Below are positions 18,438 to 53,993 of a stretch of DNA of 64,000 nucleotides, piece by piece (position 1 is the first letter of the stretch; every line of letters starts with the position of its first letter). The translations under genes were made by a program, and so were the position numbers. This stretch comes from a plasmid. The stretch is from the sequence record NZ_CP085281.1; one strand, 5' to 3'. The notes beneath the pieces were generated by a model that ran no database searches, was not told where the DNA came from, and saw only the letters and a list, made by a program, of their open reading frames with translations.

Positions 18438-18475
18438 ACACCCTCACCCAAGCCTTTCGCTATGCCGATACTCAG

Positions 18476-20579: not shown

Positions 20580-21200
20580 TCAGCGGATGTCTGGGGCCGT
20601 CCCATGGGTGTTCGTTGCCGGGTCGAGCAGTTGTGTTTCGAGGTCGGCGATGCGTCGGTCGAGGAAGCGGTTGTTGGAGCGGGCAGCTGCGAGTCGTTCG
20701 GTGAGGGTGGCGTGGTCCTCGGTGAGCTGTCGTATCCGTTGGCGCAGTGCGGTGTTCTCACTGACGAGGTGTTGCTGGCTCTCTGGTGACCAGGTTTGTT
20801 CGAGATCGCGAATCTGGCCCATCAGCTCGCCGATGCGTTGCCGCTGCCGCTGAATTTCAGCGTTGGTGGTAATGAGCGCTGCTTCGGCGTTGAGCGCGCG
20901 TTCGCGCCATCCCGAATCTGTGGTCCCCGTCGTCGCTTCGGGCGTACCACCGCCCGGGGCGGCGGTTTCGTTGGTGCGGTCGCCGGTGGCGGCGCGGACC
21001 AGTGCACGGGCCCGCGGATTTTCGTAGAGAAAGGTTCGGGACACATTGGCCTGATCAGCGATCGCCCGAGCGGTGATTGGTAGCTTGCGGCGGCGCATTC
21101 GCCGGATTGTGTCGTCGACGCGGGCGACAAGCTGGTCGGCGCGCGCCCGTCTGGCCTTGACTGCCGCGTCGGTACGGGCAGATCCGGTGGTGGCGGTCAC
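20580..21200 (-). CDS. TnpC-like small HTH + coiled-coil protein of a Tn554-like element
   Basis: 206 aa. The HTH is ITARAIADQANVSRTFLYEN and the coiled-coil is NAEIQRQRQRIGELMGQIRDLEQ. Its start abuts the stop of the long recombinase (21197). Confidence 0.55.
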   Translation of the reverse strand: MTATTGSARTDAAVKARRARADQLVARVDDTIRRMRRRKLPITARAIADQANVSRTFLYENPRARALVRAATGDRTNETAAPGGGTPEATTGTTDSGWRERALNAEAALITTNAEIQRQRQRIGELMGQIRDLEQTWSPESQQHLVSENTALRQRIRQLTEDHATLTERLAAARSNNRFLDRRIADLETQLLDPATNTHGTAPDIR

Positions 21201-23818
21201 GCGAGCTCCTCGGTCGGCACGGTGTCGTCGGCGTCATCGAGCTGGGCGAGTTCCTGTGCGCGGAACGCGGTGGCCCACATGCGGTTGAGATAGTCCTGGG
21301 GTCGGCGCATGTCGAGGGCGAGGGCTTCGTCGAGCAGTCCGACTGCGGAGAGCGCTTTTTCGAGTCCGTCGATGGCTTTGTTGGTCGGTTCGAACACCTG
21401 GTGCAGGTAGTCGGCGGTGGCGTCATCAGGTGCTCGTTCGGCGATCGAGCGCCACTGTTCGCGTTTGCGGCGCCAGTACAGCAGGTCTGCTCCGGACAGG
21501 ACGAACTTGTCGCAGTTGTGGCAGTCGAGGTTCCACGGGCACGCGTGGCCGTGGACGACCGGTTGGAAGGTGCAGAAGCCGCCTTCGGCGGGTGTGGAGC
21601 GTCGCGATAGGTCTAGAGCAAGAGCTTGGGCGTCAGTGCGGGTGAGGGTGGTGGTGCCGGCGGAGAGCACCTCACCAGGATGGGGCGCGGCGGGACCGGC
21701 GACCCAGACGTGCTGCAAGATGTCCTCGATGTCGCTGAGCGAGGCCTTCGCGTACCGCTCAGCCATGCGGGGTGAGATCTGGCCGAGGTAGCGCTGGATG
21801 TGGTGCAGCGGCGCGCCGTGGCGCAACAGTTTGGTGGCCAATGTGTGCCGGGCCTGGTGGGTGACGTAGTTGCCACCGAGATCAAGGCTGTCGACCCAGA
21901 GCCGAAACGACCGGGAGTACCACGGGTAGCCCATCGAGGCGGTGCCGTCGGAGTTGCGGAAGTTCGACGGGAACAGTGCCATCTTGTGCCGGTCGCGCGG
22001 TGCGGGTTCGTGACCGTGGTGTTGGACGTACTTCGCGATGGATTTGCGGCGGCGTGTTTCGATCAGCTCGTACACCGATTCGGGAATGCGGATAGCGGTG
22101 TCGTAGTTGCCCACCTTGGTTTGGTCGTGCCAGAGCAGCGGCAGGTCGTTGTGGCGGCCAGTGCAATCGAGGCGCAGTTTGAGCACCTCGTTGGCACGCC
22201 GGCCGGTGGCGATGATGATCGTCCACGCGTCGCGGATGCCGACGTCGTTGGGATCGTAGGCAGCAAGCGCCTGTAGGTTCTGCTCGTCGGCGAGCTGCTG
22301 AGCGACATGGTCGGGGAACGGCCGACGCGCTGGCGACGGCTGGGTGCCGCCGTAGGGTGCGGCGACGATAAATGATCGTGGGATGGCCAGGGTATCCGCG
22401 GCGCCGGTGTCGAGCGCCCACCGCAGAATACGGCGCACACTGTTGAGCGCTTGGCTGCTAGTCACGGTGGTGACGGTGCTGGGTTGTCCGTCGCCGCGGT
22501 GAATGCCCAGCGAGGGCAGACCGTGCTTGACCCGGTGGCGCTGGTCGGCGACGAACCGCTGCATGTCGACTTCGCCCAGCTGAGTCGGGTCGTGACCTCC
22601 ACCGACGGCGTCGGTTTCGAGGAAGGCGCTGAGTTCGACGACGCCGCGGCGCAGCCCATCGATCGGGCCTGCGGTAGCGGGCGGGCTGGGCGCTTGCAAA
22701 AGATCGGCAAGATAGTCCCACAACAGGTTTCGTAGCCAGGGCTGGCTGGCGCCGCGGAGATTGAAGTGGCTACCGCGGTTGGTGTAGCGGATGCCGAAGT
22801 GCTCGGTCTCCAGGAAGCCGGCCTCACGCGTGTCGGCGCGGGTGAAGTACACCAGCCGCAGCTCACCAAGCATCTCGCGGGCGACATGCTTGCGGGGGCT
22901 TCTCTTGCCAGCGTCGAGAACGTCGAGGTCCAGGTCGACCAGCGAAACAAGGTCATGCTCGCGACAAGCATTGGCCAGTGCCTGCACGTATTGCAGATCC
23001 CAGCGGGCCCGGCGCCCTTCGGTGTGCCGATACATACCCCACCGGATCTCGGCCGCGACCAAGGGCCGGAGGCCTAGCAGGTTCACCTGACCGCGCACAG
23101 GATGCGGTTCGACGGTGGCGCACCAGTGGTCGAACGCCGCGCGGTCCTCGCAGCGCAGCGGTGCGCGCTTTCCCTTGGCTTCGTAGCCCATCAGCCACCG
23201 GCCCGGCAGATGCGCGCCGCCGGGCCGGCCGACACGTTTGTAGATGGCGCCGTGCCACCGGCACAAACCGAGCGGGGACTGCGCCAGCTCGGGGCAGCAG
23301 ACGACTCGGCATTCCCCATAGCCGGGAAGCGCGTGCTGCGTGGGCAACCAGTCATCGAGGGTCAGTTCGGGATGGCGCTGCAACGCAAACCGGAACCGTT
23401 CGGAGTGCTGCAGGCACAGCCCGTTCTCCGATCGACGCGCGGGGCGTTCGGGGCAGATCCGACACATCCGTTCATCGGGTGGCAACGCGACCTTGATTGG
23501 TGTTGCGGCAGCGACGAATTCGGGGCGGTTGCCGCCCCGGTCGCGATGGCGCAGCCATTGCTTGTTGTGTTGGTTGCAGAGTTCGTTGCCGTTGGCGCGG
23601 GCAGCTTCGCACTCGGTGACTACGCATCGCCAGCCGAACACCGGATGCAGTGGCGGGAAGCGCAAGACGTCATCCCGAAACACGGGATCGACGCTGGGGC
23701 CCGACAACAGTGTCGTCAGCAGTTCGTGGCGATCGCGGACCTGCCGGCCGGGCTGGTCGATGCGCAGCGGCCACATGCTGTCACCCCATTGGGCGGGCTT
23801 GCTCATGTCAGCCCCCAC
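21197..23818 (-). CDS. Long tyrosine recombinase (TnpB-like) with a Cys-rich N-terminal extension
   Basis: 873 aa. It carries integrase-family motifs (ATGRRANEVLKL, THQARHTLATKLL, MAERYAKA) and an N-terminal CxxC/H-rich region. Confidence 0.7.
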   Translation of the reverse strand: MGADMSKPAQWGDSMWPLRIDQPGRQVRDRHELLTTLLSGPSVDPVFRDDVLRFPPLHPVFGWRCVVTECEAARANGNELCNQHNKQWLRHRDRGGNRPEFVAAATPIKVALPPDERMCRICPERPARRSENGLCLQHSERFRFALQRHPELTLDDWLPTQHALPGYGECRVVCCPELAQSPLGLCRWHGAIYKRVGRPGGAHLPGRWLMGYEAKGKRAPLRCEDRAAFDHWCATVEPHPVRGQVNLLGLRPLVAAEIRWGMYRHTEGRRARWDLQYVQALANACREHDLVSLVDLDLDVLDAGKRSPRKHVAREMLGELRLVYFTRADTREAGFLETEHFGIRYTNRGSHFNLRGASQPWLRNLLWDYLADLLQAPSPPATAGPIDGLRRGVVELSAFLETDAVGGGHDPTQLGEVDMQRFVADQRHRVKHGLPSLGIHRGDGQPSTVTTVTSSQALNSVRRILRWALDTGAADTLAIPRSFIVAAPYGGTQPSPARRPFPDHVAQQLADEQNLQALAAYDPNDVGIRDAWTIIIATGRRANEVLKLRLDCTGRHNDLPLLWHDQTKVGNYDTAIRIPESVYELIETRRRKSIAKYVQHHGHEPAPRDRHKMALFPSNFRNSDGTASMGYPWYSRSFRLWVDSLDLGGNYVTHQARHTLATKLLRHGAPLHHIQRYLGQISPRMAERYAKASLSDIEDILQHVWVAGPAAPHPGEVLSAGTTTLTRTDAQALALDLSRRSTPAEGGFCTFQPVVHGHACPWNLDCHNCDKFVLSGADLLYWRRKREQWRSIAERAPDDATADYLHQVFEPTNKAIDGLEKALSAVGLLDEALALDMRRPQDYLNRMWATAFRAQELAQLDDADDTVPTEELA

Positions 23819-24978
23819 GTCTTGCGCAACGCCGCGTCGAAAACCGGATCGTGCAGATCGGCGTGTGCGTACACCTCGTCGACTGTGGTCGTCGAGGACC
23901 AGCCTCCGGCGTCGCGGGTGACCACCAGGTTGCCACCGGACGCATCAAGGACGGCGGTGGCGAAAGAGTGCCGGAACATGTGCGGCCGGATCCGGCCCAG
24001 ACCCGCGCGGGCACCGGCGCGGCGCAGGACCGCCCGGGCGGCGTCGGGCGCCCATGCAGCGCCGATGTCGTCGCCGTCGAGCTGGACGAGCAGCATGCCG
24101 TGCTCATCGACGACCGCACGGGCGCGTTCACCGGTGACGTAGTCGAAGTAGGTGTGGATCATCGCAGGGCTGACCCGTTTAATCAGGCCGCCGGTGACCG
24201 TGCCGTCCTCGATCGTCCATGGCAGCTTCGTCTTCGCCCGTGCGCCGTTCGGATTGGCCGGGCGGTCGCAAACGTGTACGTGTGGCGATCGGCAGCCGCC
24301 GCACTCCGCACCGTCGCGCAAGTGCAGGTCCATCAGGTGCAGTCCGCACAACTCGCCGATACGGAACCCTCCGTCACATAGCCAGGCCACTACAAGCCGG
24401 TCCCGCGCGGTCCGCACCACCTGTTCCAATTTCGGGCGCGCCCCGTCGGGCAGCATCTTGGGATGGCGCCGACGAATCGACTTCGGCGCCAAGGGATTCG
24501 CGCGCACGCTGGTGGTCACGTGGCCGAGCATCGATCGTTCCCGGTCCGCTCGCGTCGGTAACCGCGTTTGGTCGAGTTCACGGCCCAGCTGCGGGCAGGA
24601 TCCGAGCACTGCGTGGTGCAGGTAGTAGCCCTTGAGGCACGCTGCAGTTGTCTGCAATGCACTGTTGCCGTAGGGACGCTCCCGCCAAGCGAGGCCGTGC
24701 GGGCCGGAGATCTTTGCGCCGACAGCCCCCATGTACCGGCGCAGGTCGCGCACGCTGATCGATTCCAGGTTCAAGCCTTCACGTGCGCACCAGCGCAGAT
24801 GATCGACCAGGTGGTACGCGTACGTGCGTTGCGTGGTGGAGCCGTCGAACTGTCGCAAAAACCCATCCGCGGGCTCGTGCACAGTGCCGTCCGGCCACAC
24901 GATCGTGAACGATCGCCACCCACCCCCGCGGTGCAAGGGCTGAACGCGTAGATCATCGACAATCGCGCGACGAGCCAT
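23803..24978 (-). CDS. Tyrosine recombinase (TnpA-like)
   Basis: It has the RPHMFRHSFATAVL (HxxR) box and the catalytic Tyr context VDEVYAHADL. The ORF track extends the frame to 25398; the start is trimmed here to MARRAIV. Confidence 0.7.
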   Translation of the reverse strand: MARRAIVDDLRVQPLHRGGGWRSFTIVWPDGTVHEPADGFLRQFDGSTTQRTYAYHLVDHLRWCAREGLNLESISVRDLRRYMGAVGAKISGPHGLAWRERPYGNSALQTTAACLKGYYLHHAVLGSCPQLGRELDQTRLPTRADRERSMLGHVTTSVRANPLAPKSIRRRHPKMLPDGARPKLEQVVRTARDRLVVAWLCDGGFRIGELCGLHLMDLHLRDGAECGGCRSPHVHVCDRPANPNGARAKTKLPWTIEDGTVTGGLIKRVSPAMIHTYFDYVTGERARAVVDEHGMLLVQLDGDDIGAAWAPDAARAVLRRAGARAGLGRIRPHMFRHSFATAVLDASGGNLVVTRDAGGWSSTTTVDEVYAHADLHDPVFDAALRKTWGLT

Positions 24979-25182
24979 CTCCGTCCTCCCCGGGTTAGCA
25001 ACCGTGTCGACGGGCAGCATTGCACCGGGCACCGACAACACGCGAAAAGCGCACATAGCTCCGATCGCGAATGCGAGCGTCGTTTGATCGCGAAATTCAG
25101 CGTCCGTCGTCAACTCGAATTGGCTCCAGTTGGGCGGTGCGAAGTGGCCCCACCTGGAGCCGGGTAGGGGGATGCTGGAGGG

Positions 25183-25545
25183 GTGGACGACGACGCGCTG
25201 CGTGAGGCGTTGATCGCGAAAGCGGCAAGCGATCTCGCGCAGTTGTTGACGTGGACCCGCGCCGAGCGGGCGCTGCGCGGTGATGACGATAAGCACGCCG
25301 CCTGGCTCGATGAGTTGCTCATCGGCCTGGAGCCGTTGGCCGAAGGTGTCGATGATGTGCAGACATCCATGGTGATGCGCCGGGTAGTGCAGCAGCATGG
25401 CGGGGAAGGCCCGTGGTCGATCGAGGATATGGCCGCGATGACCGGCCGCGATGCAAAGTCAATCGAGCGGGTGGTGGCTGGCCTGACCGAAGCCGGCGTG
25501 GCCTGCCCCGTCACGCCACCAGACGGTGATGATGAGTCGTCATGA
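25183..25545 (+). CDS. Hypothetical acidic protein
   Basis: 120-aa ORF with protein-like composition. Confidence 0.35.
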   Translation: MDDDALREALIAKAASDLAQLLTWTRAERALRGDDDKHAAWLDELLIGLEPLAEGVDDVQTSMVMRRVVQQHGGEGPWSIEDMAAMTGRDAKSIERVVAGLTEAGVACPVTPPDGDDESS

Positions 25546-26264: not shown

Positions 26265-26274
26265 TTCACAACTC

Positions 26275-26948
26275 CTTCCATCGAGTGCTGGTGGCTTCCA
26301 ACAGAGCGGGATCGAGTCCAGTCGACGGCTCCCAAGGTCGCACGTGGCGAACACGGTCGGTTAAGGAGTCCGCCGGACGGTTGAGAAGGACCGCGACGAA
26401 CGTGGCGAACACCGTTCAGCGCGGTCGGTAAAGTCGATGATCAGGTGCAGGGGTTCGCGGTTGCGCCAGTACAACGTCTCCAGGAAGTCTGCGGCGAAGG
26501 ATCTACGTTCGGCCTTCCGCATCAGCGATAAGTCGAGTACGACCGGGAATCGCTGTTGGGCAACCAGTTCGGCGACGACTGCACCTTGGTTGGGACGCAG
26601 GGCGATGTCGGCGTGGTCGCCACCGAGGATGATGACGGGGAATCCCGCTTCGCGTCCGTCGGCGGAGGAACGCAGTCCGTGCCAGACGCCGGTGGGGTCG
26701 ATGACGCAGATTAGGCAGCCGGCGTTCATCAGTTCTTCGGCCAGTACCGAGGCGGTGTGGGTCTTACCCCGGCCTTTCTTGCCCAGGATGGCGAAGGTGG
26801 CGGTCACACTGTCCACGGGCATGGTGAAGTCGTCGGCCAGCGCAATTCGCGGCGCTAGCTCGTTCCCGCGTCCGGTGTCTGTCATATCTGTGCCTGTATC
26901 GGTTGACCTGCTCTGATCGGGCTTGCCGTCTTCGAGTATGCCCGGCAT
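26275..26948 (-). pseudogene. P-loop NTPase, apparently frameshifted near 26400 (or a sequencing error)
   Basis: Walker A is FAILGKKGRGKTHT, with DPTGVW and LHLIIDFTD (Walker B-like). The frame breaks just after this point, and the +1 frame continues with protein-like sequence (VFATFVAVLLNRPADSLTDRVRHVRPWEPSTGLDPALL...) to about 26275. Confidence 0.4.
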
Positions 26949-34762: not shown

Positions 34763-34958
34763 GGCTACACCGTAACACCCCTCAGGCATTACGGTCGGAA
34801 TACCTGAGTAGTATGTTGATACGAGCGTGGCGCCAGTCGCTGCCGGCCGAAGTTGTCAGAGGTCGTCGCTACAGTGCCCAACGAACGCCGGAACACGTTC
34901 CGGCGCTACTGAACCGGCCAGCCCCGAGGGGTTGGTCACCGAACCGAAAGGTGCTCCG

Positions 34959-37900: not shown

Positions 37901-39635
37901 GTCGATGCTGCGCCGCGCCAATCCCACGCGGCCTTACGCGAGCCTTTTCACGGGCACCCCCTACACCAACACGCTGGCGGAAGCATATGTGTGGCAACGC
38001 TTTTGCGACCCCGGCCGACTGGTAGAGTCCGGCCTGGGCCACTTCGATGCATGGGCTGCACAGTTCGTCCGCTACGAAACCCTCGTCGAGGTCAGCCCGG
38101 ACGGTTCGGGCTTCCGCAGCCGCCGCCGCCCGGTGGTCATCCAGAACGTTCCCGAGCTGCGAACGATGATCGGCTCGTTCATGTCCATGGTGCGTAGCTC
38201 GATGACAGACCTGAAGCTGCCGACACCGCATCAGCACACCCTCGTCGTGCAGCCCACGGACAACACGCGCGCCTTCATGACCAATTTGGTCAAGCGCGCC
38301 GATGACCTGCGGGCCCGCCGAGTGCAGCCGGACAAGGACAACATGCTGGCGATCTGCGGCGATGGCCGCAAGGTGGCGTTGGATCCCAACCTGGTCGGCT
38401 TCGCCGAGGTGGCCCCGAAGCTGGAGGCGGTCGCCGAGAACGTGGCGGCGATCTACCACCGGACACGGCACTCGGTGTATCCGAATTCGCCTGTGCCGGG
38501 CGCTTTCCAGTTGGTGCTGTGCGATCTGGGCACTCCCCATCCCGGCGACGCGCAGAGCTACGGGCGGATCCGCAGCGGACTCATCGCGCGCGGTGTGCCG
38601 GCCGAGCGGATCCGATTCATCCACGAGGCGACCAATTCGAAAGCCAGAGAGGCGCTATTTGCAGCGTGCCGTGACGGTCGTGTGTCGGTGTTGTTCGGCT
38701 CGACGCCGAAAGTTGGTGTAGGAACCAACATTCAGAACAGGATGGTTGCTCTGCACCATGTCGATCCGACTTGGACGGCACGCGACTGGGATCAGCGCAA
38801 CGGCCGCGGTGTGCGCAACGGTAATCTGCACGATGACATCGACATCTACTGCTACGCCGTCGAGGGGTCGTTCGACGCCTACATGTTCCAGTTGGCCGAG
38901 CGCAAGAGCCGCGGCTTCGAGCAGCTCTACCGCACCGATTCCGAGGTCAGGGAGATCGAGGATTTGGGCGACGGGACACTGAGCTTCGGGGAGCTGAAGG
39001 CCGCCGCCGCGGGCAACACACTGCTGCTGCGCCAGCACGAACTGCAGGTCCTTGTCCGCAAGCTGCGCCTCAAGCATGTGACTGCCCGCCAGAACGTCAA
39101 CGCCGCGTTGAATGCCGCGGCCGAGGCCGAGCGGCACGCCGACGCCCTGCTGTCGCGGGCGCGACGGCTGGCCGAACTCGTCGACTACCGGAGCCAGCTG
39201 GCGCCGCTGGACTTGTCCCGGTGCGCGGAGAACGCCGTGTCGGGCAATGGCCATCGCGCCCGGTGGTCTAGTGGCCCGCTGGTGGTGCAGATCGCGGAGG
39301 AGCGCGGTGATCATCACGTGAAGGTCAGCTTCGGGTACCGCACGCTGTGGAGCCAGGTGTTGCCGGCCAAGGTCCGGCGTCAGGGAGCCGAGGCTGTCGC
39401 GGCATGGACGCGGGCCTGGGTCAGCGGATGCCTCGACGGCGCGGCCGCCGAGCACGCCGAGATCATCGGCCGCGCCAGCGCCGCCCAGGACCGGGCCGCG
39501 CAGTCCCGTGCGGCCGCGGCCGGCACGGATCTATCCGCACCGCAGGAGTTGATCGCCGCCGAGACGGAGCTGGCCGAGATCAGCGCCCGGATCAAAGACG
39601 AGATCCTCGACGCCCGCGGCGAGGAGGCCGCCTGA
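34959..39635 (+). CDS. DNA N6-adenine methyltransferase fused to an SF2/SNF2-type helicase; DarB-like anti-restriction / DNA-modification protein
   Basis: The ORF is open from 34827. The methyltransferase motifs are VLDLGCGTGRFL (motif I) and AVGNVPFSA (motif IV, NPPF-like). The helicase domain has the Walker B AVDEADRFRR, followed by further C-terminal helicase motifs. Confidence 0.8.
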   Translation: MAPTLSAARAALHAVHALHDLRPGASPTPQQRAVLLRFPGWGTAAPLFDSQPAKSWAALADELEDLDPSAMKAAARVVDTSFYTPPVLIEHIYRLLQHAGFHGGEVLDLGCGTGRFLSHAPTDLPIAYTGVDVDPVAARIGAVLHPEATILAERLQNVSLPSNRFDAAVGNVPFSAANVSDPGIDFHGPLHEYFLVRAARAVRPGGYVVMVTSRHTLDAAAGLSYSLRAHADLLAAIRLPAGYFAAEGTDVVADVLVLRARDVDEPRQGWDPRQPGELLSGTDGQGRSASARVSAFWSAHPELVAGTMRLTGFHQNPVTVEADDPHGSVAEAFGAARRLLVPYPTGNAVSSTFSDVVLTDAEGRKEGSFHLVDGKMARVVEGQLQPVVRPSKELHALVALRDATVALVTAEADWDTQDSALDSLRTTCREAYLAYVERFGPLNRGTLIEGKIDPDTGLPKLSWRVPTMSGFRGDPDAALVFALERFDQETGDAAPAAILQRRVNRRPVPVTRVDTAGEAMAVSLGEGRGLDLSRVAELLGLPTTEAAFAALGDLAYRDPATGAVCTARDYLCGDVRTKLQDALAAAATDPSYERNVTALQEVQPRWLGRDEVRIELGSPWVTAGDIEDFCREVFGAKWVKVHHIAPLAAWEIQGNAREINPEAKITYTTTRKSAFDLLQAGLNSTSPTVYDEVYDPIARSTRRVRNADETEAAQAALTAIEQRFSLWVWESPQREQRLLDRYNHAMNSHVLRRDDGSYLTFPGLADDLELWWWQRDFVDRALSIPAAFNAHEVGLGKTRTAIALCMTLRQFGIANRPLYIVPNHLIEQAQRETLQSAPAGKILVVTREDLTRYGRRLFAARCATGDWDMVIMTHETFASMPVPAEVEREWLDDQLAELEDYKRSQGDNGKRIAAAVRSLEGRIERLRDVATDADAITFDMLGIDYLAVDEADRFRRLPITTRAEGFSLGASKRATDLLLKLSMLRRANPTRPYASLFTGTPYTNTLAEAYVWQRFCDPGRLVESGLGHFDAWAAQFVRYETLVEVSPDGSGFRSRRRPVVIQNVPELRTMIGSFMSMVRSSMTDLKLPTPHQHTLVVQPTDNTRAFMTNLVKRADDLRARRVQPDKDNMLAICGDGRKVALDPNLVGFAEVAPKLEAVAENVAAIYHRTRHSVYPNSPVPGAFQLVLCDLGTPHPGDAQSYGRIRSGLIARGVPAERIRFIHEATNSKAREALFAACRDGRVSVLFGSTPKVGVGTNIQNRMVALHHVDPTWTARDWDQRNGRGVRNGNLHDDIDIYCYAVEGSFDAYMFQLAERKSRGFEQLYRTDSEVREIEDLGDGTLSFGELKAAAAGNTLLLRQHELQVLVRKLRLKHVTARQNVNAALNAAAEAERHADALLSRARRLAELVDYRSQLAPLDLSRCAENAVSGNGHRARWSSGPLVVQIAEERGDHHVKVSFGYRTLWSQVLPAKVRRQGAEAVAAWTRAWVSGCLDGAAAEHAEIIGRASAAQDRAAQSRAAAAGTDLSAPQELIAAETELAEISARIKDEILDARGEEAA

Positions 39636-42325: not shown

Positions 42326-43072
42326 TCAGTCAACCCTTCTCACGTACTCGTCCAGGGCCCGTTGCATTCGTTCGTCATGGCGGTAGTCGTCGCGGGCGAC
42401 CTCGACGAAGTGGCGGATCTGTTCGGCGTTGAACTGGCCACCGACACCGCGGGGGTAACGCTGCAGTCGCTCTCCGGGCGGTGCCCACTGCAACGCCGGC
42501 TCGGCTCTGATGAAGTCGGACACCGCGGCGAGCTGCTCCAGCGGCTCCACCAGATGGTTGAGCCGTCGGTCATAGATCTCGGTGGCGACGACCGCGCCGG
42601 CGCCGAAGGCGACCTCCACCAACTCCTCGCGCGGGATCCTTCGGCCGCGGCACAGCGCGTCCCAGACTGGTTGGGCGATCAGCGTGAACACCACGGGGTG
42701 TCCGTCGAGCACGGTGCATGGTGGGTAGAGCCCGCCGTAGAGGTCGGCGCACGTGGTTGTCCGCTCGACGAGATAGAGCAGGGATTCGATCGCAATGTCG
42801 GGGTCGAACCAGTCTGGGTCTCCACGGTGGGTGTGATCGTGGGCGATGAATCGGCCCTGGCGGTACGCGTGGGAGAAGAACGCCGTGAGGGCGGCGGTGT
42901 TCGCATCGGTTGCGACGCCGTCGATGCACCCGAATCCGTCGTAGGTGCCATGGATTCCGAGCGCGATCGGGTGATACCGCCCGTCATCGGCGCGTTGCAG
43001 GAGTACGGCGGTAGCCTCGACCCCGCTGAGGCTCACCCCGCTGATGAGGCACGCCGCGTCATAGAATCCCAC
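42326..43072 (-). CDS. Hypothetical protein
   Basis: 248-aa ORF downstream of dnaB. Confidence 0.5.
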   Translation of the reverse strand: MGFYDAACLISGVSLSGVEATAVLLQRADDGRYHPIALGIHGTYDGFGCIDGVATDANTAALTAFFSHAYRQGRFIAHDHTHRGDPDWFDPDIAIESLLYLVERTTTCADLYGGLYPPCTVLDGHPVVFTLIAQPVWDALCRGRRIPREELVEVAFGAGAVVATEIYDRRLNHLVEPLEQLAAVSDFIRAEPALQWAPPGERLQRYPRGVGGQFNAEQIRHFVEVARDDYRHDERMQRALDEYVRRVD

Positions 43073-43133: not shown

Positions 43134-45260
43134 TCACCAATTCGCGCCGGTGTCAACGCTTTCTGCGCCGCCATACCCGCCTCGCGCCATGTTCGAGAAG
43201 CGACTGAGGTGAAGTTGGCTGGCGACGGTGATCGTCCGGCATGGTCCCGCCCTGTGCTTGCCGATGATGATCTCGGCTTCGCCTGCCTGGGGATGGTCTC
43301 GGTCGAACGCATCGGGTCGGTGCAGCAGCATGACGACGTCGCTATCCTGCTCGATGCTTCCCGACTCGCGAAGGTCAGATATCAGGGGGCGCTTGTCTGT
43401 TCGCTGCTCCGGCCCTCGGTTGAGCTGGCTGATCGCCACCACGGGCACGTCGAGTTCCTTGGCCATGAGCTTGAGCGTCCGGGAGAACTCCGAGACTTCC
43501 TGTTGACGGCTTTCGAAGCGCTTCCCTGAGGTCATCAGTTGCATGTAGTCGACCACGATCAGTTTCAAGGGGGTCTTCTGCGCCAGACGCCGCGCTTTGG
43601 CGCGGATCTCCATCATGGTGAGGTTCGGTGAGTCGTCGATGAACAGCGGGGCCTCGCTGATCTCACTCATCTTCTTGGCTAGCCGCGTCCAGTCGTCGTC
43701 GCTCATCTTCCCTGACCGCATGCTGGCCAACTTGATCTTGGCCTCCGCCGACAACAGACGCATGACGATCTCGGACTTGCTCATTTCCAAGGAGAAGATG
43801 ACGCTGGCCATTCGGTGCCGGATCGAGCATGACCGCATGAAATCCAGTGCGAGCGTGGAATTGTGGGTGGGCACCATGCCACCCCCGGCGAGGTAGAGGT
43901 GGTCGTCGTTGTCCACCTGGACGCAGCGCACGGCCACGCTGTGCCGCGGCTGCACCGCGGTCACGGTGCGCTCTCCTGCCACCACGCGGATCGGCTCCCC
44001 GGGCCACCCGGGGGCCAGCACGTAGCCCAGAGAGGCGAGCAGGTCGGTCGCCAGTGTGCGGTCTTCGGGCAGCCGCCACCGGGCGGTGATGGTGAAGCTG
44101 TCGCCCTGGCCGCCGTGGACCTGGCTGGCATCGAGCAGTCCCCGCAGCATGGCGCGCCGCTGCCGCAGCGATCCGCGCAGGTACCGCGAGACCACGGTGT
44201 CGTAGCCGCGCAGCTGTACGGCGGTGTCTCCGGCTAGGTAACGGCCCACGGTGTACGGGTCGTCCCCGTGCTCGCCGACCTCGGGTAGCTCTACGGGCGC
44301 GGCGGTGGGGATCAAGTCACCGGCTACCAGTTCGGCGGTGACCAGGATTCCGCGGCGAGTCGGCCACTGGTGGCGTTCATCGGCGGTGATGACCGTGCCA
44401 TCGGAGAAGGACACGTCGTAGCAGGGCCGGCCGTAGAGTACGGCGGTCGTGGCCACGACCCGTGTGGGGCGGCCGTCGGCGCCGAGTAGGTAGTCCCCGA
44501 CGTTGACGTCGCCCATCGTGGTCCAGCCTGTTGGTGTGGGCAGGATGGTGTTGAGCGCCAGGGCTTTTCCGACGCCGGGCCGCGCGGCCACGGTGATCAT
44601 CTGCCCGGGATGGAGGCCGTTGGTCAGTTCGTCGAGGTCGTGGAAGCCGGTGGGCACACCGCGGGCGAGGCCGCCGTGAGTGGATAGGTCGTCGAGTTCG
44701 TCCATCGTTGCTTGCAGCAGATCCGACAGCGATGCGTAGTCCTCGCGCCGGTCGCGGTTGTTGACGTTGTAGATCTCGGCTTGAGCCCGGTCCACGATGT
44801 CGCTGACCTCGGCACCCTCGGCGCCGGCGTATCCGTACTGAACCACGCGGGTGCCGGCCTCGACGAGGCGTCGTAACACGGCCTTCTCGGCGACGATGCG
44901 CGCGTAGTAGGAGGCGTTGGCCGCGGTGGGCACCGCCGCGAGCAGGGTATGGAGATAGGGGCCAGCACCGATGCGTCGCAGCTGGCCCCTGCGGTCGAGT
45001 TCGGCGGCGACGGTGACACCGTCTGCCGGTTCTCCTCGCCCGAAGAGATCCAAGATGGCGTCGAAGATCATCTGGTGCCGCGGCTTGTAGAAGTCACCTG
45101 GCTCAACGATTTCCAGGACGTCGGCGATCGCATCCTTGCTCAGCATCATGGCGCCCAGCACCGACTGCTCGGCAGTGTCGTCGTGTGGGGGGAGCCGACC
45201 GAAGTCTCCCTCGGAGACTGGCTCCTCGACTCTGGCGGGGCGGTGCTCGACGGCGGTCAT
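43134..45260 (-). CDS. dnaB: Replicative DNA helicase DnaB with an intein in the P-loop
   Basis: The N-terminal DnaB domain is SVLGAMMLSKDAIADVLEIV. The Walker A ARPGVGK is interrupted and resumes as STLALDF. C-terminal motifs include LIVVDYMQLM and SQLNRG. The ORF is trimmed to start at MTAVEH. Confidence 0.9.
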   Translation of the reverse strand: MTAVEHRPARVEEPVSEGDFGRLPPHDDTAEQSVLGAMMLSKDAIADVLEIVEPGDFYKPRHQMIFDAILDLFGRGEPADGVTVAAELDRRGQLRRIGAGPYLHTLLAAVPTAANASYYARIVAEKAVLRRLVEAGTRVVQYGYAGAEGAEVSDIVDRAQAEIYNVNNRDRREDYASLSDLLQATMDELDDLSTHGGLARGVPTGFHDLDELTNGLHPGQMITVAARPGVGKALALNTILPTPTGWTTMGDVNVGDYLLGADGRPTRVVATTAVLYGRPCYDVSFSDGTVITADERHQWPTRRGILVTAELVAGDLIPTAAPVELPEVGEHGDDPYTVGRYLAGDTAVQLRGYDTVVSRYLRGSLRQRRAMLRGLLDASQVHGGQGDSFTITARWRLPEDRTLATDLLASLGYVLAPGWPGEPIRVVAGERTVTAVQPRHSVAVRCVQVDNDDHLYLAGGGMVPTHNSTLALDFMRSCSIRHRMASVIFSLEMSKSEIVMRLLSAEAKIKLASMRSGKMSDDDWTRLAKKMSEISEAPLFIDDSPNLTMMEIRAKARRLAQKTPLKLIVVDYMQLMTSGKRFESRQQEVSEFSRTLKLMAKELDVPVVAISQLNRGPEQRTDKRPLISDLRESGSIEQDSDVVMLLHRPDAFDRDHPQAGEAEIIIGKHRAGPCRTITVASQLHLSRFSNMARGGYGGAESVDTGANW
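43860..44564 (-). other. Intein of 235 aa inserted in the DnaB Walker A loop; it starts with Ala (class-3-like)
   Basis: It begins with ALALNTILPTPTGW, has a block-B-like SDGTVITADERH, and ends with VPTHN|S. A possible WCT-equivalent is RCV. Removing it restores GVGK-STLALDF. Confidence 0.6.
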
Positions 45261-45553
45261 GCCAGCCTGCCTGGGTGTGGGGGCCGCACCGCCGGCGCCC
45301 GGTTGGCCTCGCGTACCTGGCGCTGCAGTGCCAGCGCCAGCTGCACGCCGCTGTCGCGTTCGGCGATCTGCTGCTGAGTCAAGGCGGGCGCTCCGGTGGA
45401 ACGCAGGTGGGGCCCGAAGTCGTCGAGGCATTCGCCGCAGGTGGCGCCCCACCGGTGCACCTCGTTGATGCAGCCGGGGATCACACACAGCGGGACAGCG
45501 CCGGATTGAGGTTCGGCATTCCGCTTCGAGGTTGATCGCTTGATGCGTTCCAT
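45257..45553 (-). CDS. Small Cys-rich (zinc-ribbon-like) protein
   Basis: It carries CVIPGC...CGEC. Its stop overlaps the dnaB start. Confidence 0.4.
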   Translation of the reverse strand: MERIKRSTSKRNAEPQSGAVPLCVIPGCINEVHRWGATCGECLDDFGPHLRSTGAPALTQQQIAERDSGVQLALALQRQVREANRAPAVRPPHPGRLA

Positions 45554-45699: not shown

Positions 45700-46563
45700 T
45701 TAGGCGGCGGCCCGGCGCGGCTCGGGCGCGCACGGGCGCAGCACGCCTCGAAAGCCCGTCGGCATGGCCAGCCGGCCCCCGGCCGGCCGGCGCAGGTTGT
45801 AGCGCTCGTGGAACGTGATCGCGACGAACTTCGGCAGCGCCCCGCCGCCGTGCTTGCCGCCGGCCTTCTTGGCCTTGGCGAAGAAGCCGACCCGTTCGGG
45901 GGTCAAGTCGATCAGCGCATCGACGAGAGTGTCGCAGTCGAAGTTCTCGTCGGCGCCGAAAGCGTCGAGGAACACCGCCATGCCACCGACGAGGCCCGAG
46001 TCGTAGGCGCCCAGTTGCGCACCCCACGTGTCATGCAGTAGCCGCAGGGCATCGCGCAGCAGTGCGTGCCCGCCGCGGCTGCCGGCAATCTTCTCCAGCA
46101 TCGCGGTGCAGCGCAGGTGTCCATCCTTGGGCGCGTCGTCGACCCGCAGTCCCAGACGGGCCACCGTTTCTTCGATGGCGATCACGTCAGGGTCGAGCTG
46201 TGCGCGCCGCGCCTTCCACCGGTCCCATGTCGTCAGGCGGCGACGTTGCACGTCAATGCCGACGAACAGTTGCGCTTCCTCGGCGAGGGTCAGGCCGCTG
46301 TGCACGCGGGCGGCAATCGCTGCGCCCGGGTCCCGTAACGCTACTGCCGCCCAACGGTGTTGGCCCTCGACCACGGCATACCGCGGGTGATGCTCACACC
46401 CACGATCGGAGACCTCGATGACTCCCAGAAGACGCTGATCGAAGTTGTCGGCCATAGCTTGGGCCCGCCGAGGGTCAAGGGGCCGCTGGTAGCTGTGGTC
46501 GGCGAAGATGTCGGCGACGGAAATCGCCAGGACGTAGGGCTCGCTGGCCTGCGGTGTGGTCAT
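45700..46563 (-). CDS. ParB/Srx-like nuclease (ParB N-terminal) domain protein
   Basis: YAVVEGQHRWAAVAL fits the ParB N-terminal domain signature. The ORF is trimmed to start at MTTPQ. Confidence 0.55.
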   Translation of the reverse strand: MTTPQASEPYVLAISVADIFADHSYQRPLDPRRAQAMADNFDQRLLGVIEVSDRGCEHHPRYAVVEGQHRWAAVALRDPGAAIAARVHSGLTLAEEAQLFVGIDVQRRRLTTWDRWKARRAQLDPDVIAIEETVARLGLRVDDAPKDGHLRCTAMLEKIAGSRGGHALLRDALRLLHDTWGAQLGAYDSGLVGGMAVFLDAFGADENFDCDTLVDALIDLTPERVGFFAKAKKAGGKHGGGALPKFVAITFHERYNLRRPAGGRLAMPTGFRGVLRPCAPEPRRAAA

Positions 46564-46835
46564 CGGTCGTGACCTCCTGTGTGCGGGTTGGCCGTGTCGT
46601 TGGTGGTCGCGATCGACCAGGCGACGTGGCGGCGTCCCGGCAGCCGGACGCGACGGACCTCGCTGCGGTGTTCCAGGACGACCAGGTTGCGGTAGACGAT
46701 TTCGTTGACGAGCGCCGGCGCCCATGGCGAGAGCCGCTGACGAAGCTCCGCGGTGGTCAACTCAGCGCCGGCGCGGGTCAACTCGTCGAGCAGGTGCTTG
46801 CGTACGAGTTCCGGATCCAGGCGGATGGCGCTCAT
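46560..46835 (-). CDS. Small hypothetical protein
   Basis: Translationally coupled to both neighbours through ATGA overlaps. Confidence 0.35.
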   Translation of the reverse strand: MSAIRLDPELVRKHLLDELTRAGAELTTAELRQRLSPWAPALVNEIVYRNLVVLEHRSEVRRVRLPGRRHVAWSIATTNDTANPHTGGHDR

Positions 46836-47176
46836 CGCATTCGCACCGAGTCGCCGCGGTGGTTGAAGGCTTCGACCTGCTCGACGGGCGGGTGGGCGAT
46901 GGCCGCGCAGGCGGGGCATAGTGGGGCGCCGTCTTGCAGAAGTGCCGTCGGCGCCGACTGCACCAGGCGAACGCCGCATCGCGACCGTGGGGCCCGGCCC
47001 AGCCCGACGTCGAGCAGGTGCTGCAGCCGTCCGACGCAGTGGATCACCTGATCGCCGTCGTAGTGTCGGCGCGGGCACGCGCATGGCAATTGGTCTGCCT
47101 GCCAGTGCTTCAGCGACCCGTGCAGGTAGTCGGGCACCCACGCCGCGGGTGCCAGGACGACCCCGGCGACGGTCAT
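46832..47176 (-). CDS. Small Cys/His-containing protein, a possible zinc ribbon
   Basis: It carries CACPRRH...HC...CPAC. Confidence 0.35.
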   Translation of the reverse strand: MTVAGVVLAPAAWVPDYLHGSLKHWQADQLPCACPRRHYDGDQVIHCVGRLQHLLDVGLGRAPRSRCGVRLVQSAPTALLQDGAPLCPACAAIAHPPVEQVEAFNHRGDSVRMR

Positions 47177-47907
47177 GATCGGCCTCCAACACCACGCCCT
47201 GCCGCCCACAGCGCCCGGTAGTCCAGGTCCTGCAGCAAGGACAGGTCCTGGCGCTGCAACGTCGGCAGCATCCGCGCCAGCGCCGCCGCCGCAGTCCCGT
47301 CGTACTCCATGGCGGCCGGAAAGATCGCCTGCACATCACCGGGGATGTCGGCGACGAACCCGCCACAGGCGACGTCTTCACCGAGATCACTGATGTGCCA
47401 GCCGTATTCGCCGACCAACCGTGCGATCAGCCACGCCGCGCAGCGTCCCCTCCTCATGGGCTGCTCCTGCGCCGGCAGGATCGGAAGTGGCTCGCCGCAA
47501 CGCCAATGGTCTTGGTGGCGGTGCGGGGTGCGCACGTGCCACTGCGCCAACCAGCACAGCTGGGTGAGCCACTCGTCGCCGGTTTCGGCATCGTTTTGTC
47601 CCAGGCTTGCCACCGCACGCGCCAGCGCGATCAACCGGTGCGACACGTCGCGGCCGGGAACCTGTTGGCGTGCTGCACGATTGCCGCGCAGATCCCAGCT
47701 CACGGTGACGGTGCGCTGGGTGGGCGCCGCGGCGGTGACGAAGGCGGTGGCGGTGTGTGCGTCGAATGCGAGGCGCTTGGGTAGCCAACCGTAGGCGGCC
47801 AGGTCGACGATCATCCAGTAGGCGTCGATCACCTCGGCCGGGGGTTGCTCATCACCGAGACCGGGGATGCGTTCGCGGCCGGCGGACCGCTCGGCGGGCC
47901 GCGTCAT
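47173..47907 (-). CDS. Hypothetical protein
   Basis: 244-aa ORF; its stop overlaps the next gene's start. Confidence 0.45.
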   Translation of the reverse strand: MTRPAERSAGRERIPGLGDEQPPAEVIDAYWMIVDLAAYGWLPKRLAFDAHTATAFVTAAAPTQRTVTVSWDLRGNRAARQQVPGRDVSHRLIALARAVASLGQNDAETGDEWLTQLCWLAQWHVRTPHRHQDHWRCGEPLPILPAQEQPMRRGRCAAWLIARLVGEYGWHISDLGEDVACGGFVADIPGDVQAIFPAAMEYDGTAAAALARMLPTLQRQDLSLLQDLDYRALWAAGRGVGGRS

Positions 47908-48582: not shown

Positions 48583-49611
48583 CTAATACGCGGTATGCCG
48601 CGCTACGGAGCCGACCTGGTCATAGCCGTCCACCATGGCCAATAGGTCGGTGTTCAGATCACCCAGCGCGGCGGCGGCCAACTCATTCTCCGCACCGGCC
48701 ACGAACAGCGAGCCGTCACCGGTGTCTATCGCGTCGGCATGGAGCCGGCGCGCGCGCTGCTGCACCTCGTCGAGCGTTGCCACACAGCGGTGTAGCACCG
48801 TCAACCGGTCGAGCAGGGCGTTAGTCAAGATGCGACGTTCGGAGCGCACCGCGGTCCGCGCAAGTCCCCTCAGCGTCACCATCTGCGCCAGCTGCGCCGT
48901 CTGGTCATCGTGCCGATCGAGGCTGTAGGCCGCGCGGGCGATCTGGAAGATCTCCTCGTCGGCATCGAAACGCGTTCGCAGCACGTCGACCCCGGGAAGC
49001 GTCCATGCTGGGCTGCCGGCCAGCTCATCCACCACCGAAATGCCTTCGAGCAGATAGGCGCCGCCGGCCGTGATCGATCCTTCGCCAGCCAGCGGATTCC
49101 AGTCCAAGACGCGCCGCGCAGCGTTGACTTCCCGCCGCTGGGCCGGGGCGAGCCTGAGCGGGTCCCGCACCGCCCAAACCAGGAGGGCGGCAATGGCCGA
49201 GGCCACGGTGATGCATGCGAGGGCACCCCAGCCCGCCAGGACGCCGACTCGAGCCCGATCGTCGGCTGCCCGAGCGCAGATCAATCCAGTGAGCGCCAGC
49301 AAGACCGAGGCGATCGCCCAGCAGGTGGCGCTACGCGGTGTGGCCCAGCGTGGGAGCCGGTGTTGCCGCGGCCCGGCCACACCGAACAGGGTTGCTGCGG
49401 GCATGCCGGCCGAACGGCGACCGGCGATCAGTTCCGCGGTGGTGGCGCTGAGGTCTGCCAGGCGCAAGGGTGCCACGTGCGGCCCACGCCACAACCACGT
49501 CGGGCCGGTGGTGATGCTGCGACGGTCCTGGGCCTGCCAGAACGCCAGTCGCATGCGGACGCGGGCCCGCAGCTCGTCGCCGTCGCTGTCCGCCTCTGGT
49601 TCGCCGCCCAC
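48583..49611 (-). CDS. Hypothetical membrane protein
   Basis: 342 aa with hydrophobic segments. Confidence 0.45.
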   Translation of the reverse strand: MGGEPEADSDGDELRARVRMRLAFWQAQDRRSITTGPTWLWRGPHVAPLRLADLSATTAELIAGRRSAGMPAATLFGVAGPRQHRLPRWATPRSATCWAIASVLLALTGLICARAADDRARVGVLAGWGALACITVASAIAALLVWAVRDPLRLAPAQRREVNAARRVLDWNPLAGEGSITAGGAYLLEGISVVDELAGSPAWTLPGVDVLRTRFDADEEIFQIARAAYSLDRHDDQTAQLAQMVTLRGLARTAVRSERRILTNALLDRLTVLHRCVATLDEVQQRARRLHADAIDTGDGSLFVAGAENELAAAALGDLNTDLLAMVDGYDQVGSVARHTAY

Positions 49612-52277: not shown

Positions 52278-52546
52278 GCCCCCGCGCCGATGACCTGACC
52301 TCACCGGCCGGCGCCCTCAGCGCCGCCTTGGCTGCACTGTGCGAGGCCTCCACCGCGGATGAACAGTGGCGACGCTGGCAGTACGCACGCACGGCCGCCG
52401 ACTACGCCGCCGAAGCCTGGTGGCACCCCGACAGCACCGCCGAACAACGGGCAGAAGCCTCCCGCTGCCTCAAGCTGAGCGATGACCTCGACGAGGAGAG
52501 CAAGGCCCGACGCGACCGGGAGCGTCCCGGGGAGTGGTGTAAGTGA
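52278..52546 (+). CDS. Small hypothetical protein (about 89 aa), divergent from parA
   Basis: The ORF ends MSPRADDLTSPAGALSAAL...RERPGEWCK. Confidence 0.3.
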
Positions 52547-52580
52547 TGGCGGCGTGTCGGTCCCTGACGTAAGAGGGCCA

Positions 52581-53895
52581 TCGCGTGAGTCTCTGTGGTG
52601 AAACGACCAAGAATCACTACCGAGAGGAACATCGCGATGGCCCTGGACCAGTCTGCCTTGCTGGAGGTGCTCGACGCACTGCGCACCGCCGATGCCGGTG
52701 AGCGGATCACTCAAGCCGCCGAAACGATCTACCAAGCCTTGATCGACGCGGAGTTGACCGCGTTCATCGGGGCTTCTCCCCATGAGCGCACCGAGACCCG
52801 CTCCAATCAGCGCAACGGCTCGCGTCCGCGCACGCTGTCCACGGTCGCAGGGGACCTGGAACTGCGGATTCCCAAGCTGCGCACCGGGTCATTTTTCCCG
52901 GCGTTGTTGGAGCGGCGTCGCCGGGTCGATCAGTGCTTGTTCGCGGTGGTGATGGAGGCCTACCTGCACGGCACCTCCACCCGCAAGGTCGACGATCTGG
53001 TCAAGGCACTGGGTACCGATACCGGGATCTCCAAAAGCGAGGTCAGCCGGATCTGCAAAGACCTCGACACCGAGGTCGCGGCCTTCCGGGACCGGCCGTT
53101 GGGTGATCAGCGCTTTCCGTATGTCTTCCTCGACGCCACCTACTGCAAGGCCCGGGTGAATCATCGGGTGGTGTCGCAGGCGGTGGTCATCGCCACCGGG
53201 GTGGCCGCTGACGGGCGCCGCGAGGTACTGGGCTTTGAGGTCGGAGACTCCGAGGACGGGGCGTTCTGGACCGCGTTTTTGCGGTCGTTGAAATCCCGCG
53301 GTCTGGCCGGAGTCCAACTGGTCATCTCCGATGCCCATGCCGGACTGCGCAGTGCCATTGACGCCGTGCTGATCGGGGCCGCCTGGCAGCGGTGTCGAGT
53401 GCACTTCCTGCGCAACGTGCTCGCCCAAGTGCCCAAGGGCTCCGCAGAGATGGTCGCCGCCGCGATCCGCACCGTCTTCGCCCAGCCAGACGCCGAGCAC
53501 GTGCGCGAACAACTCGACACCATCGCCGGCATGCTCGGCCGCCAGTTCCCCAAGGTCGAAACCATGTTGCGCGAGGCCGCCGCCGACATCACCGCCTTCG
53601 CCGACTTCCCGGTGGCCCACTGGAAAAAGATCTGGTCAACCAACCCACTGGAGCGATTGAACAAGGAAATCAAACGCCGCACCGACGTCGTCGGCGTGTT
53701 CCCCAACCCCGCCGCGCTGTTACGGCTGGCCGGCTCGGTACTCGTTGAGGCCCACGACGAATGGCAGGTCGCCGACAAGCGCTACCTCTCCGAGACCAGC
53801 CTCGCTCTGCTCGACGTCAGTGACCAAAGTGCCGAAACCATTGCCCCCACAGCCGCTCTCACGGCATAGTGGCTACCACAGAGCCACACGCGGAC
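52581..53895 (+). mobile_element. IS256-family insertion sequence (IS1081-like), about 1.3 kb
   Basis: The transposase gene is flanked by imperfect inverted repeats: left gcgtgagtctctgtggt and right (reverse complement) gcgtgtggctctgtggt. The exact ends and target-site duplication are not resolved. Confidence 0.75.
52637..53869 (+). CDS. IS256-family (mutator-type) transposase
   Basis: Signature blocks are ERSNQRNGSRPRTL, GTSTRKVDDL, VISDAHAGL, WQRCRVHFLRN and NPLERLNKEIKRRTDVVGVFPN. It is strongly similar to IS1081 transposase. Confidence 0.85.
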   Translation: MALDQSALLEVLDALRTADAGERITQAAETIYQALIDAELTAFIGASPHERTETRSNQRNGSRPRTLSTVAGDLELRIPKLRTGSFFPALLERRRRVDQCLFAVVMEAYLHGTSTRKVDDLVKALGTDTGISKSEVSRICKDLDTEVAAFRDRPLGDQRFPYVFLDATYCKARVNHRVVSQAVVIATGVAADGRREVLGFEVGDSEDGAFWTAFLRSLKSRGLAGVQLVISDAHAGLRSAIDAVLIGAAWQRCRVHFLRNVLAQVPKGSAEMVAAAIRTVFAQPDAEHVREQLDTIAGMLGRQFPKVETMLREAAADITAFADFPVAHWKKIWSTNPLERLNKEIKRRTDVVGVFPNPAALLRLAGSVLVEAHDEWQVADKRYLSETSLALLDVSDQSAETIAPTAALTA

Positions 53896-53993
53896 ACGCG
53901 ACCGCTCTTACACCACTCCACGGGACGTGACCACGCGACCGACTGCGCGCAGGCATCCGTCGGCCGCGGCCGACAGCCAAATAACCCTCGGCC

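Follow-up and report, generated by a model that had tools for sequence, protein, structure and literature searches.

A predicted class 3 intein with a decayed homing endonuclease in the plasmid-encoded DnaB helicase of Mycobacterium avium subsp. hominissuis

We analysed a 64,000-nucleotide stretch of plasmid DNA from sequence record NZ_CP085281.1 (the window) that contains the replicative helicase gene, dnaB, of a Mycobacterium avium subsp. hominissuis plasmid. The gene is split at its P-loop by an in-frame insert (43860-44564), and we are highly confident that the product of this insert is a class 3 intein which occupies the DnaB-b site and carries the remnant of a dead homing endonuclease. 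A previous sequence-only reading had placed a class-3-like mini-intein beginning with Ala at these positions and had suggested that the plasmid would make a mobile intein vector. The insertion site and the class hold, and the terms "mini-intein" and "mobile" need to be qualified as described below.

The dnaB gene lies entirely on the minus strand and is enclosed by an open reading frame (ORF) spanning 43134..45488. When translated from the ATG at 45260, which is the likely start, the coding sequence (43134..45260, minus strand) gives a 708-amino-acid (aa) precursor followed by a stop codon (43134-43136). At NCBI, WP_342314785.1 / WZT99916.1 is identical to this precursor over the same length and is named "replicative DNA helicase (plasmid)", from a 215,734-bp contig. 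Pfam detects the DnaB N-terminal domain as well as DnaB_C, the latter broken into two stretches. The N-extein (44565..45260, minus strand) comprises DnaB residues 1-232 and ends in the Walker A sequence ...ARPGVGK, and the C-extein (43137..43859, minus strand) begins with Ser+1 (43857-43859), the P-loop serine of the DnaB Walker A, and runs on as STLALDF... through the remaining ATPase domain. DnaB site a is free of a second intein, since Pfam matches the C-terminal part of DnaB_C without a break.

The insert takes up DnaB codons 233-467, from position 44564 down to 43860 (minus strand; 705 nt, 235 aa, Ala1 to Asn235). It starts with ALALNTILPTPTGW directly after ...ARPGVGK and ends with ...GGGMVPTHN directly before STLALDF, and translation of the dnaB ORF showed neither a frameshift nor a stop codon inside it. 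Excision in silico converts GVGK/.../STLALDF into GVGKSTLALDF within a 473-aa protein containing ARPGVGKSTLALDF. In the excised protein DnaB_C is matched as a single stretch over all profile positions (1-255 of 255), and the TIGR00665 DnaB profile is also matched as a single stretch over positions 1-434 of 435 with 514 bits, the cut-off being 385 bits. The insertion lies between the Lys and the Ser of the DnaB Walker A GxGKS/T, which is the DnaB-b site, where the Ser of the P-loop also serves as the +1 nucleophile (PMC6195587, PMC5050341). The junction, GK/A...HN/ST, is identical in 25 of the 25 relatives with a delimitable intein. The boundaries and the P-loop position given by the sequence-only reading were exact, excision rebuilds the DnaB P-loop as it had proposed, and the defects it had named as fatal, a frameshift or a junction failing to restore the P-loop, are absent.

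To identify the insert we relied on inteins of known structure. A phmmer search against the PDB gave E-values of 4e-46 to 6BS8/6OWN (the crystallised and biochemically studied 139-aa M. smegmatis class 3 DnaB intein, DnaBi1) and 2e-43 to 6RIX (the 145-aa MchDnaB-1 intein), so that the likeness is not due to chance. Insert residues 1-83 align residue for residue with DnaBi1 1-83 and residues 194-235 with DnaBi1 98-139, and the identity over this HINT domain is 0.77 to Msm and 0.79 to Mch. An AlphaFold2 model of the insert has a splicing core with a predicted local distance difference test (pLDDT) of 78-94. The best matches of the whole model in a Foldseek search of the PDB were again the class 3 DnaB inteins (6BS8, 6RIX); this search confirms the intein fold and nothing beyond it.

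The N-terminal part of the HINT domain (intein residues 1-83; 44316..44564, minus strand) contains blocks A and B, with the codons for Ala1 at 44562-44564, Cys48 at 44421-44423, Asp62 at 44379-44381, His65 at 44370-44372 and Trp67 at 44364-44366, all on the minus strand and all invariant columns in the alignment of intein relatives. The C-terminal part (residues 194-235; 43860..43985, minus strand) contains blocks F and G, with the minus-strand codons for Cys214 (43923-43925), the predicted initiating nucleophile located within VRCVQVDN of block F, Tyr224 (43893-43895) and Thr233-His234-Asn235 (43860-43868). Cys48 and Cys214 are the only two cysteines of the intein. The insert thus has the four splicing blocks (A, B, F and G), ends in His-Asn with a nucleophile next to it (THN/S) and has a modelled HINT fold. 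In class 3 inteins position 1 is not Cys, Ser or Thr, and the +1 position is Ser or Thr (Tori et al. 2010, PMC2807308). Their WCT triplet is formed by position 12 of block B (Trp), position 4 of block F (Cys) and position 5 of block G (Thr); splicing depends absolutely on the Cys, and a block F branched (thioester) intermediate forms (PMC2807308). The window intein has Ala1, W67/C214/T233 and Ser+1, and its triplet lines up with W67, C118 and T137 of DnaBi1 (PMC6195587). Every residue known to matter in DnaBi1 is present (Ala1, Cys48, Asp62, His65, Trp67, Cys214, Val215, Tyr224, Thr233, His234, Asn235 and Ser+1). The class-3-like assignment, originally drawn from the Ala at position 1 and an internal Cys, is borne out by the complete triplet, and the alignment with Msm DnaB-1 that had been recommended shows the block F and G motifs in place.

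The way in which this intein would splice can be inferred by homology from DnaBi1 and from the mycobacteriophage Bethlehem DnaB intein (MP-Be DnaB). The precursor would be an inactive ATPase, since its Walker A is split. Cys214, at block F position 4, would attack the Lys(-1)-Ala1 peptide bond to form the block F thioester branched intermediate, and the N-extein would then be transferred to the side chain of Ser+1. Cyclisation of Asn235 with the assistance of His234 would release the intein, and an O-to-N shift would leave GVGKSTLALDF and an active helicase for plasmid replication. In DnaBi1, Cys48 is needed for splicing and forms an oxidant-induced disulfide with the catalytic Cys (PMC6195587), and Cys118, Val119 and Tyr128 are zinc ligands (PMC7360933). 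The window intein has its counterparts: the block B DxxH residues are Asp62 and His65 in both proteins, the C-terminal pair His138, Asn139 of DnaBi1 corresponds to His234, Asn235, Cys48 has the same number in both (PMC6195587), and the zinc ligands correspond to Cys214, Val215 and Tyr224 (PMC7360933). Because Cys48, Cys214, Val215 and Tyr224 are conserved, splicing, and hence the supply of plasmid helicase, is probably inhibited in a reversible manner by oxidants, through a Cys48-Cys214 disulfide, and by zinc, an effect that has been demonstrated for DnaBi1.

Between the two parts of the splicing domain, at the place of the 14-residue linker of DnaBi1, are 110 residues (intein residues 84-193; 43986..44315, minus strand) with a block-C-like DDPYTVGRYLA (44232-44264, minus strand) and a block-E-like RRAMLRGLLDASQVH (44115-44159, minus strand). 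A search for homologous proteins with the intein gave mostly fragmentary gene calls, broken at the intein or within it, and its use was limited to P0021, P0001 and the building of an alignment. By BLASTP the 110-residue segment matched P0021, a fragment with a LAGLIDADG_3 domain, with both motifs aligned, and it matched the endonuclease regions of long relatives with E-values down to 5e-8. A profile of full-length endonuclease regions, built from 12 long forms, recovered it by hmmsearch with E 5e-12 at Z=1. Pfam gave no LAGLIDADG match to it even at E of 10 or below; the LAGLIDADG_3 gathering score was reached by the tested 328-, 417- and 501-aa members of the family and was missed by the tested 277-aa member as well as by the window insert.

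Alignment showed that the 235-aa form is the 417-aa form minus four blocks, about 180 aa in total. The first deletion removes about 24 aa immediately after block B and the second about 11 aa ahead of the first LAGLIDADG motif. The third takes most of the first half-domain together with a Cys-rich zinc-ribbon-like insert, and the fourth takes about 37 aa following ...SLGY; strands of the other half-domain are among the losses. What is left of the first motif is PYTVGRYLAGDT, for PYTLGAWLGDGT in the full-length form, and of the second motif YLRGSLRQRRAMLRGLLDASQV, for YLRGSESQRRAMLAGLLDTDGTV. In the window intein motif 1 reads YLAGDT as against WLGDGT in relatives, with the GDG scrambled, and motif 2 reads GLLDASQ as against GLLDTDG. 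The acidic residue that ends each motif is lost from both in 5 of the 5 aligned 235-aa sequences, the motif 2 position being Ser or Ala. The two acidic-ended motifs and two complete half-domains (each taken as alpha-beta-beta-alpha-beta-beta-alpha) of an active LAGLIDADG endonuclease are thus not found here. Given the four deletions and the loss of the acidic residue from both motifs, residues 84-193 are what remains of a LAGLIDADG homing endonuclease that is predicted to be dead. The term mini-intein is therefore apt in the functional sense, the endonuclease being predicted dead, and fails in the structural sense: the intein has 235 aa against the 139 aa of Msm DnaBi1, and in place of a short linker free of any endonuclease-derived domain it has about 110 extra residues homologous to a LAGLIDADG domain. 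It probably behaves like a mini-intein without an active nuclease, though its structure is not minimal.

A scan of species-representative genomes yielded at least 128 relatives of the intein. Motif-based delimitation at 80 genome loci gave 25 complete inteins, six more with the start motif only and about 50 without a match, and since only 25 of the 80 loci were delimited the size classes are a sample and not a census. These 25 inteins have sizes of 154-156, 235, 276-277, 328, 407-418 and 497-502 aa. Across Actinomycetota the DnaB-b site shows a graded series of about 500, about 417, 328, 276, 235-240 and 130-156 aa, of which the window intein is a clear intermediate. The 235-aa class and the Msm and Mch mini-inteins have a common junction after block B (HQWPT..G.R.T). 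A stepwise erosion from the full-length intein through a 235-like form to the mini-intein, in this putative order, is consistent with such a junction. The homing-cycle model (PMC1654191) is in line with such an erosion, and the linker of DnaBi1 has been described as the probable relic of a lost endonuclease (PMC6195587). Full-length DnaB-b inteins (407-502 aa; L030, L033, L035, L037, L038, L044, L045, L062 and L066) have a Cys-rich, double zinc-ribbon-like segment between both LAGLIDADG motifs, of the pattern CVVCG...CGQSCGG...CPRCG...C..C, and those of roughly 500 aa are extended by another segment of about 90 aa, inserted after block B.

The 235-aa form occurs at five loci: the window, the M. 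avium plasmid p1-JPH1, Mycolicibacterium palauense, Mycobacterium sp. NPDC006124 and M. rhodesiae JS60. It is also found in Mycolicibacterium sp. Y3 and in a Mycobacterium metagenome-assembled genome, which fall in the same 90% protein cluster, so that its length is constant in seven sequences. The four-deletion architecture is kept at 237-240 aa in the distant plasmid lineages of M. avium pS2b, M. fortuitum and M. aubagnense, to which the identity is about 30% in the remnant and 64-73% in the HINT domain. True mini-inteins occupy DnaB-b on two plasmids, from M. intracellulare subsp. chimaera (145 aa) and M. alvei (130 aa). In PLSDB there are at least seven mycobacterial plasmids with a DnaB-b intein, at least six besides the plasmid of the window; in NZ_AP020327.1, NZ_CP076860.1, CP089609.1, NZ_CP122996.1, NZ_CP012886.2 and NZ_AP022566.1 dnaB holds a DnaB-b class 3-type intein of 130-240 aa, and the annotation of these six genes says only "replicative DNA helicase" and records no intein. 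A phage origin of the window intein was considered and rejected: there is no close copy in phage DnaB, and phage relatives, which lie mostly within terminase or exonuclease genes, share at most about 34% identity along the full length.

To determine how selection acts on the different parts of the gene we computed the ratio of nonsynonymous to synonymous substitution rates (dN/dS, omega) by the Nei-Gojobori method for the ten pairs among the five 235-aa loci. The mean dN/dS was 0.135 in the exteins, 0.163 in the HINT domain and 0.30 in the remnant, about twice that of HINT, while dS was about 0.75 and equal across the three. In six pairs the omega of the remnant was 0.25-0.44 with an upper 95% bootstrap limit of at most 0.69, and it reached 1 or more in 0 of 2000 bootstrap replicates. 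The same calculation between the distant plasmid lineages was set aside, as dS there is saturated (0.8-1.9) and omega unreliable, and amino-acid identities alone were used for them. We conclude from these rates that the splicing domain and the helicase are likely to be functional, and that the remnant is relaxed but not neutral, under weak purifying selection. The equal dS of intein and exteins also leads us to conclude that the intein has co-diverged with its host gene without recent homing. As the endonuclease is predicted dead and the dS values are equal, we infer that the intein cannot home by itself, that it is inherited vertically with the dnaB of this plasmid family and that its spread by the plasmid is passive. 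The suggestion of a mobile intein vector survives in this passive sense, the intein riding with the plasmid, and is contradicted as far as active homing is concerned.

Several points weigh against our reading of the insert. On its own it finds nothing significant in Pfam, the best match being Hom_end_hint at E 0.1, and nothing in NCBIfam; the family assignment thus rests on PDB and pairwise homology, and these two libraries do not capture this HINT subfamily. AlphaFold2 confidence is low for residues 97-187 (pLDDT 31-59), and we therefore draw no conclusion on the fold of the remnant. A 110-aa remnant in place of a 14-aa linker could slow or alter folding and splicing. Finally, the proposed mechanism and the predicted redox and zinc sensitivity are carried over from DnaBi1, to which the splicing domain is about 77% identical.

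The alternative that best survives is that the remnant has been co-opted and now tunes the kinetics of folding and splicing, or binds something, and in this way regulates the maturation of the plasmid helicase. If it were kept because it is functional, the remnant might control how fast the precursor folds or splices; in combination with the Cys48-Cys214 redox trap and the zinc site, this would let host stress gate helicase maturation. The constraint on the remnant (omega 0.25-0.44, bootstrap bound at most 0.69 in six pairs), the lack of indels within the 235-aa class at a dS of about 0.75 and the retention of the four-deletion architecture (235-240 aa) in lineages as far as M. avium pS2b, M. 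fortuitum and M. aubagnense are all in its favour. They are offset by an omega about twice that of HINT, by the fall of remnant identity to about 30% across lineages and by the low confidence of the structure prediction. Moreover, other plasmid and chromosomal DnaB-b inteins work at 130-156 aa without a remnant, and weak constraint is to be expected anyway from the need to avoid misfolding inside an essential protein. We therefore regard co-option, and with it a functional reason for keeping the remnant, as unlikely.

It is still less probable, and in our view only a slight chance, that the intein is splicing-dead and that the plasmid dnaB is a decaying pseudogene or works unspliced. The homing endonuclease part is clearly decayed, and at least one class 3-like "DnaB" intein, from Arthrobacter FB24 (Arth_1007), is reported as a pseudogene (PMC3196547). 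In the window, however, every catalytic residue is intact, and the five plasmid-type loci show no frameshifts or stops and a low dN/dS (HINT 0.16, exteins 0.135) at a dS of about 0.75. The exteins make a complete DnaB that passes TIGR00665, and the gene is syntenic in plasmid p1-JPH1 and in three related genomic contigs. Nor would one expect ATP binding by a split Walker A, an argument also made for DnaBi1 (PMC6195587).

We consider it very improbable that the intein is still an autonomous mobile element, its 110-aa middle being a compact active LAGLIDADG endonuclease, perhaps a homodimeric one with a single motif, and the plasmid an active donor to intein-less dnaB genes. A recognisable LAGLIDADG helix followed by strand-strand-helix elements is retained, purifying selection is seen (omega about 0.3) and the 235-aa length is constant in seven sequences. 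Yet all five sequences have Ser or Ala in place of the acidic residue of motif 2 (DTDG in relatives that look active), the GDG of motif 1 is scrambled, and about 180 aa of the 417-aa form are missing, among them most of one half-domain and strands of the other. Pfam has no LAGLIDADG match at E of 10 or below, the equal dS of intein and exteins speaks for co-inheritance and not for recent homing, and the remnant retains only about 30% identity between plasmid lineages against 64-73% for HINT. Equally remote is splicing by the class 2 (KlbA-like) route, in which the +1 residue, a Cys in KlbA inteins, would attack the N-terminal junction directly with no block F Cys intermediate. Ala1 is common to class 2 and many class 3 inteins (PMC2807308), but the full WCT triplet is present here and class 2 lacks it by definition, Ser+1 fits the thioester-to-ester transfer of class 3 (PMC2807308), and the splicing domain is about 77% identical to that of DnaBi1, a class 3 splicer with Cys118 as nucleophile (PMC6195587).

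A class 3 intein with a dead endonuclease remnant, as we read the insert, has close counterparts among known systems. DnaBi1 of M. smegmatis (Msm DnaB-1; PDB 6BS8 / 6OWN; PMC6195587, PMC7360933) sits in the same host protein at the same DnaB-b site and shares Ala1, the DxxH (D62/H65), W67, the block F Cys, THN, Ser+1, Cys48, the zinc-ligand positions and a total of only two cysteines. It differs in having 139 aa with an unresolved 14-aa linker, whereas the window intein has 235 aa with the 110-aa LAGLIDADG remnant. The M. smegmatis dnaB, which is chromosomal, has a second intein at site a, and the plasmid dnaB has none. MchDnaB-1 (PDB 6RIX / 6RIY, 145 aa) has the same site, the class 3 signature and a core identity of 0.79, and is a mini-intein without an endonuclease remnant. 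The full-length DnaB-b inteins of 407-418 aa (for example L037 from Speluncibacter jeojiensis, L035 and L044 from Mycobacterium sp., and P0021) share the site and the class 3 residues with 72-78% identity in the core, and their middle region is homologous to the remnant of the window intein; they retain the LGDGT and LLDTDGT motifs, the Cys-rich zinc-ribbon-like insert and about 180 more residues, all of them gone from the window intein. MP-Be DnaB, the class 3 prototype, was compared by description (PMC2807308): it belongs to the same class, with no N-terminal nucleophile, a WCT triplet, a hydroxyl residue at +1 and a DnaB-like host, and differs in having Pro1/Thr+1 in place of Ala1/Ser+1, about 340 aa by its numbering (Cys320, Thr339) and an apparently active endonuclease that is toxic in E. 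coli (PMC2807308). A further case is the dnaB intein of p1-JPH1 (NZ_AP020327.1, WP_095785663.1), which has 235 aa, the same four-deletion architecture, 83% aa identity and the same gene neighbourhood; the two are orthologues on plasmid backbones that differ by about 18% in nucleotides, and the p1-JPH1 gene is annotated only as "replicative DNA helicase".

The plasmid location that the sequence-only reading had supposed agrees with the NCBI protein name and with the synteny with p1-JPH1. About 75% of the window between 39 and 64 kb aligns to this plasmid at 82.5% identity, including dnaB, ParA and the ESX genes eccE, mycP and eccD, and the window between 27 and 39 kb aligns at 81% identity. Upstream of dnaB is a gene for a DUF6551 protein (45700-46725, minus strand), which together with two further upstream genes (homologues of window ORFs 47173-47907 and 48583-49611) has matches in 4 of the 4 other 235-aa loci. 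The downstream gene, for a 248-aa protein without a Pfam match (42326-43072, minus strand), a giant methyltransferase-SNF2 gene and ParA are each matched in three of these four. The DUF6551 and 248-aa genes may belong to the plasmid replication module. The giant gene is a 1602-aa ORF (34827-39635, plus strand) in which an S-adenosylmethionine (SAM)-methyltransferase is fused to SNF2-family helicase domains, and it is present near the dnaB locus in p1-JPH1, M. palauense and Mycobacterium sp. NPDC006124 with 86-88% aa identity.

Other parts of the window bear traces of mobile elements, of which an IS1245 copy and a block in common with pS2b also point to plasmid DNA. The IS256-family element, IS1245 (52518-53936), breaks a region that is otherwise about 82% identical to p1-JPH1. 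Its transposase ORF lies at 52595..53869 on the plus strand (Pfam Transposase_mut, E 1.6e-137), and several M. avium plasmids have copies of the element with 99.9-100% identity. A 12-kb block (14533-26465) matches M. avium plasmid pS2b (NZ_CP076860.1) at 99.9% identity. It contains tyrosine recombinase genes that adjoin or overlap (21197..23818 and 23803..25398, minus strand), a gene for a GntR regulator and a DUF6262 gene and, set in a backbone that has diverged elsewhere, has the look of a mobile element that was shared recently. The dnaB of pS2b is different, its 237-aa DnaB-b intein being only 51% identical to that of the window. Three consecutive large ORFs of 594, 502 and 603 aa (3593-8731, minus strand), the middle one with a phage-integrase SAM-like N-terminal domain, may form a second recombinase cluster of the recombinase-in-trio type. 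The genes for eccE and a mycosin-type subtilase (mycP) of a type VII (ESX) system lie at 54921-58303 (minus strand) and place the plasmid among the mycobacterial ESX-carrying plasmids; eccD is also annotated in the syntenic region of p1-JPH1.

The window intein brings no novelty in mechanism or architecture, and public databases already contain similar plasmid copies that lack an intein annotation. Mechanistically our work adds little, as crystal structures, in vivo splicing reporters and redox and zinc regulation are already known for mycobacterial class 3 DnaB P-loop inteins. The plasmid DnaB-b inteins being un-annotated, the precursor sizes given in databases are misleading. If splicing is conditional in this intein too, plasmid replication would be throttled under stress, independently of the chromosome. 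Should the remnant have been co-opted, unlikely as this is, the copy number or replication of large ESX-carrying plasmids would likewise be gated by host stress.

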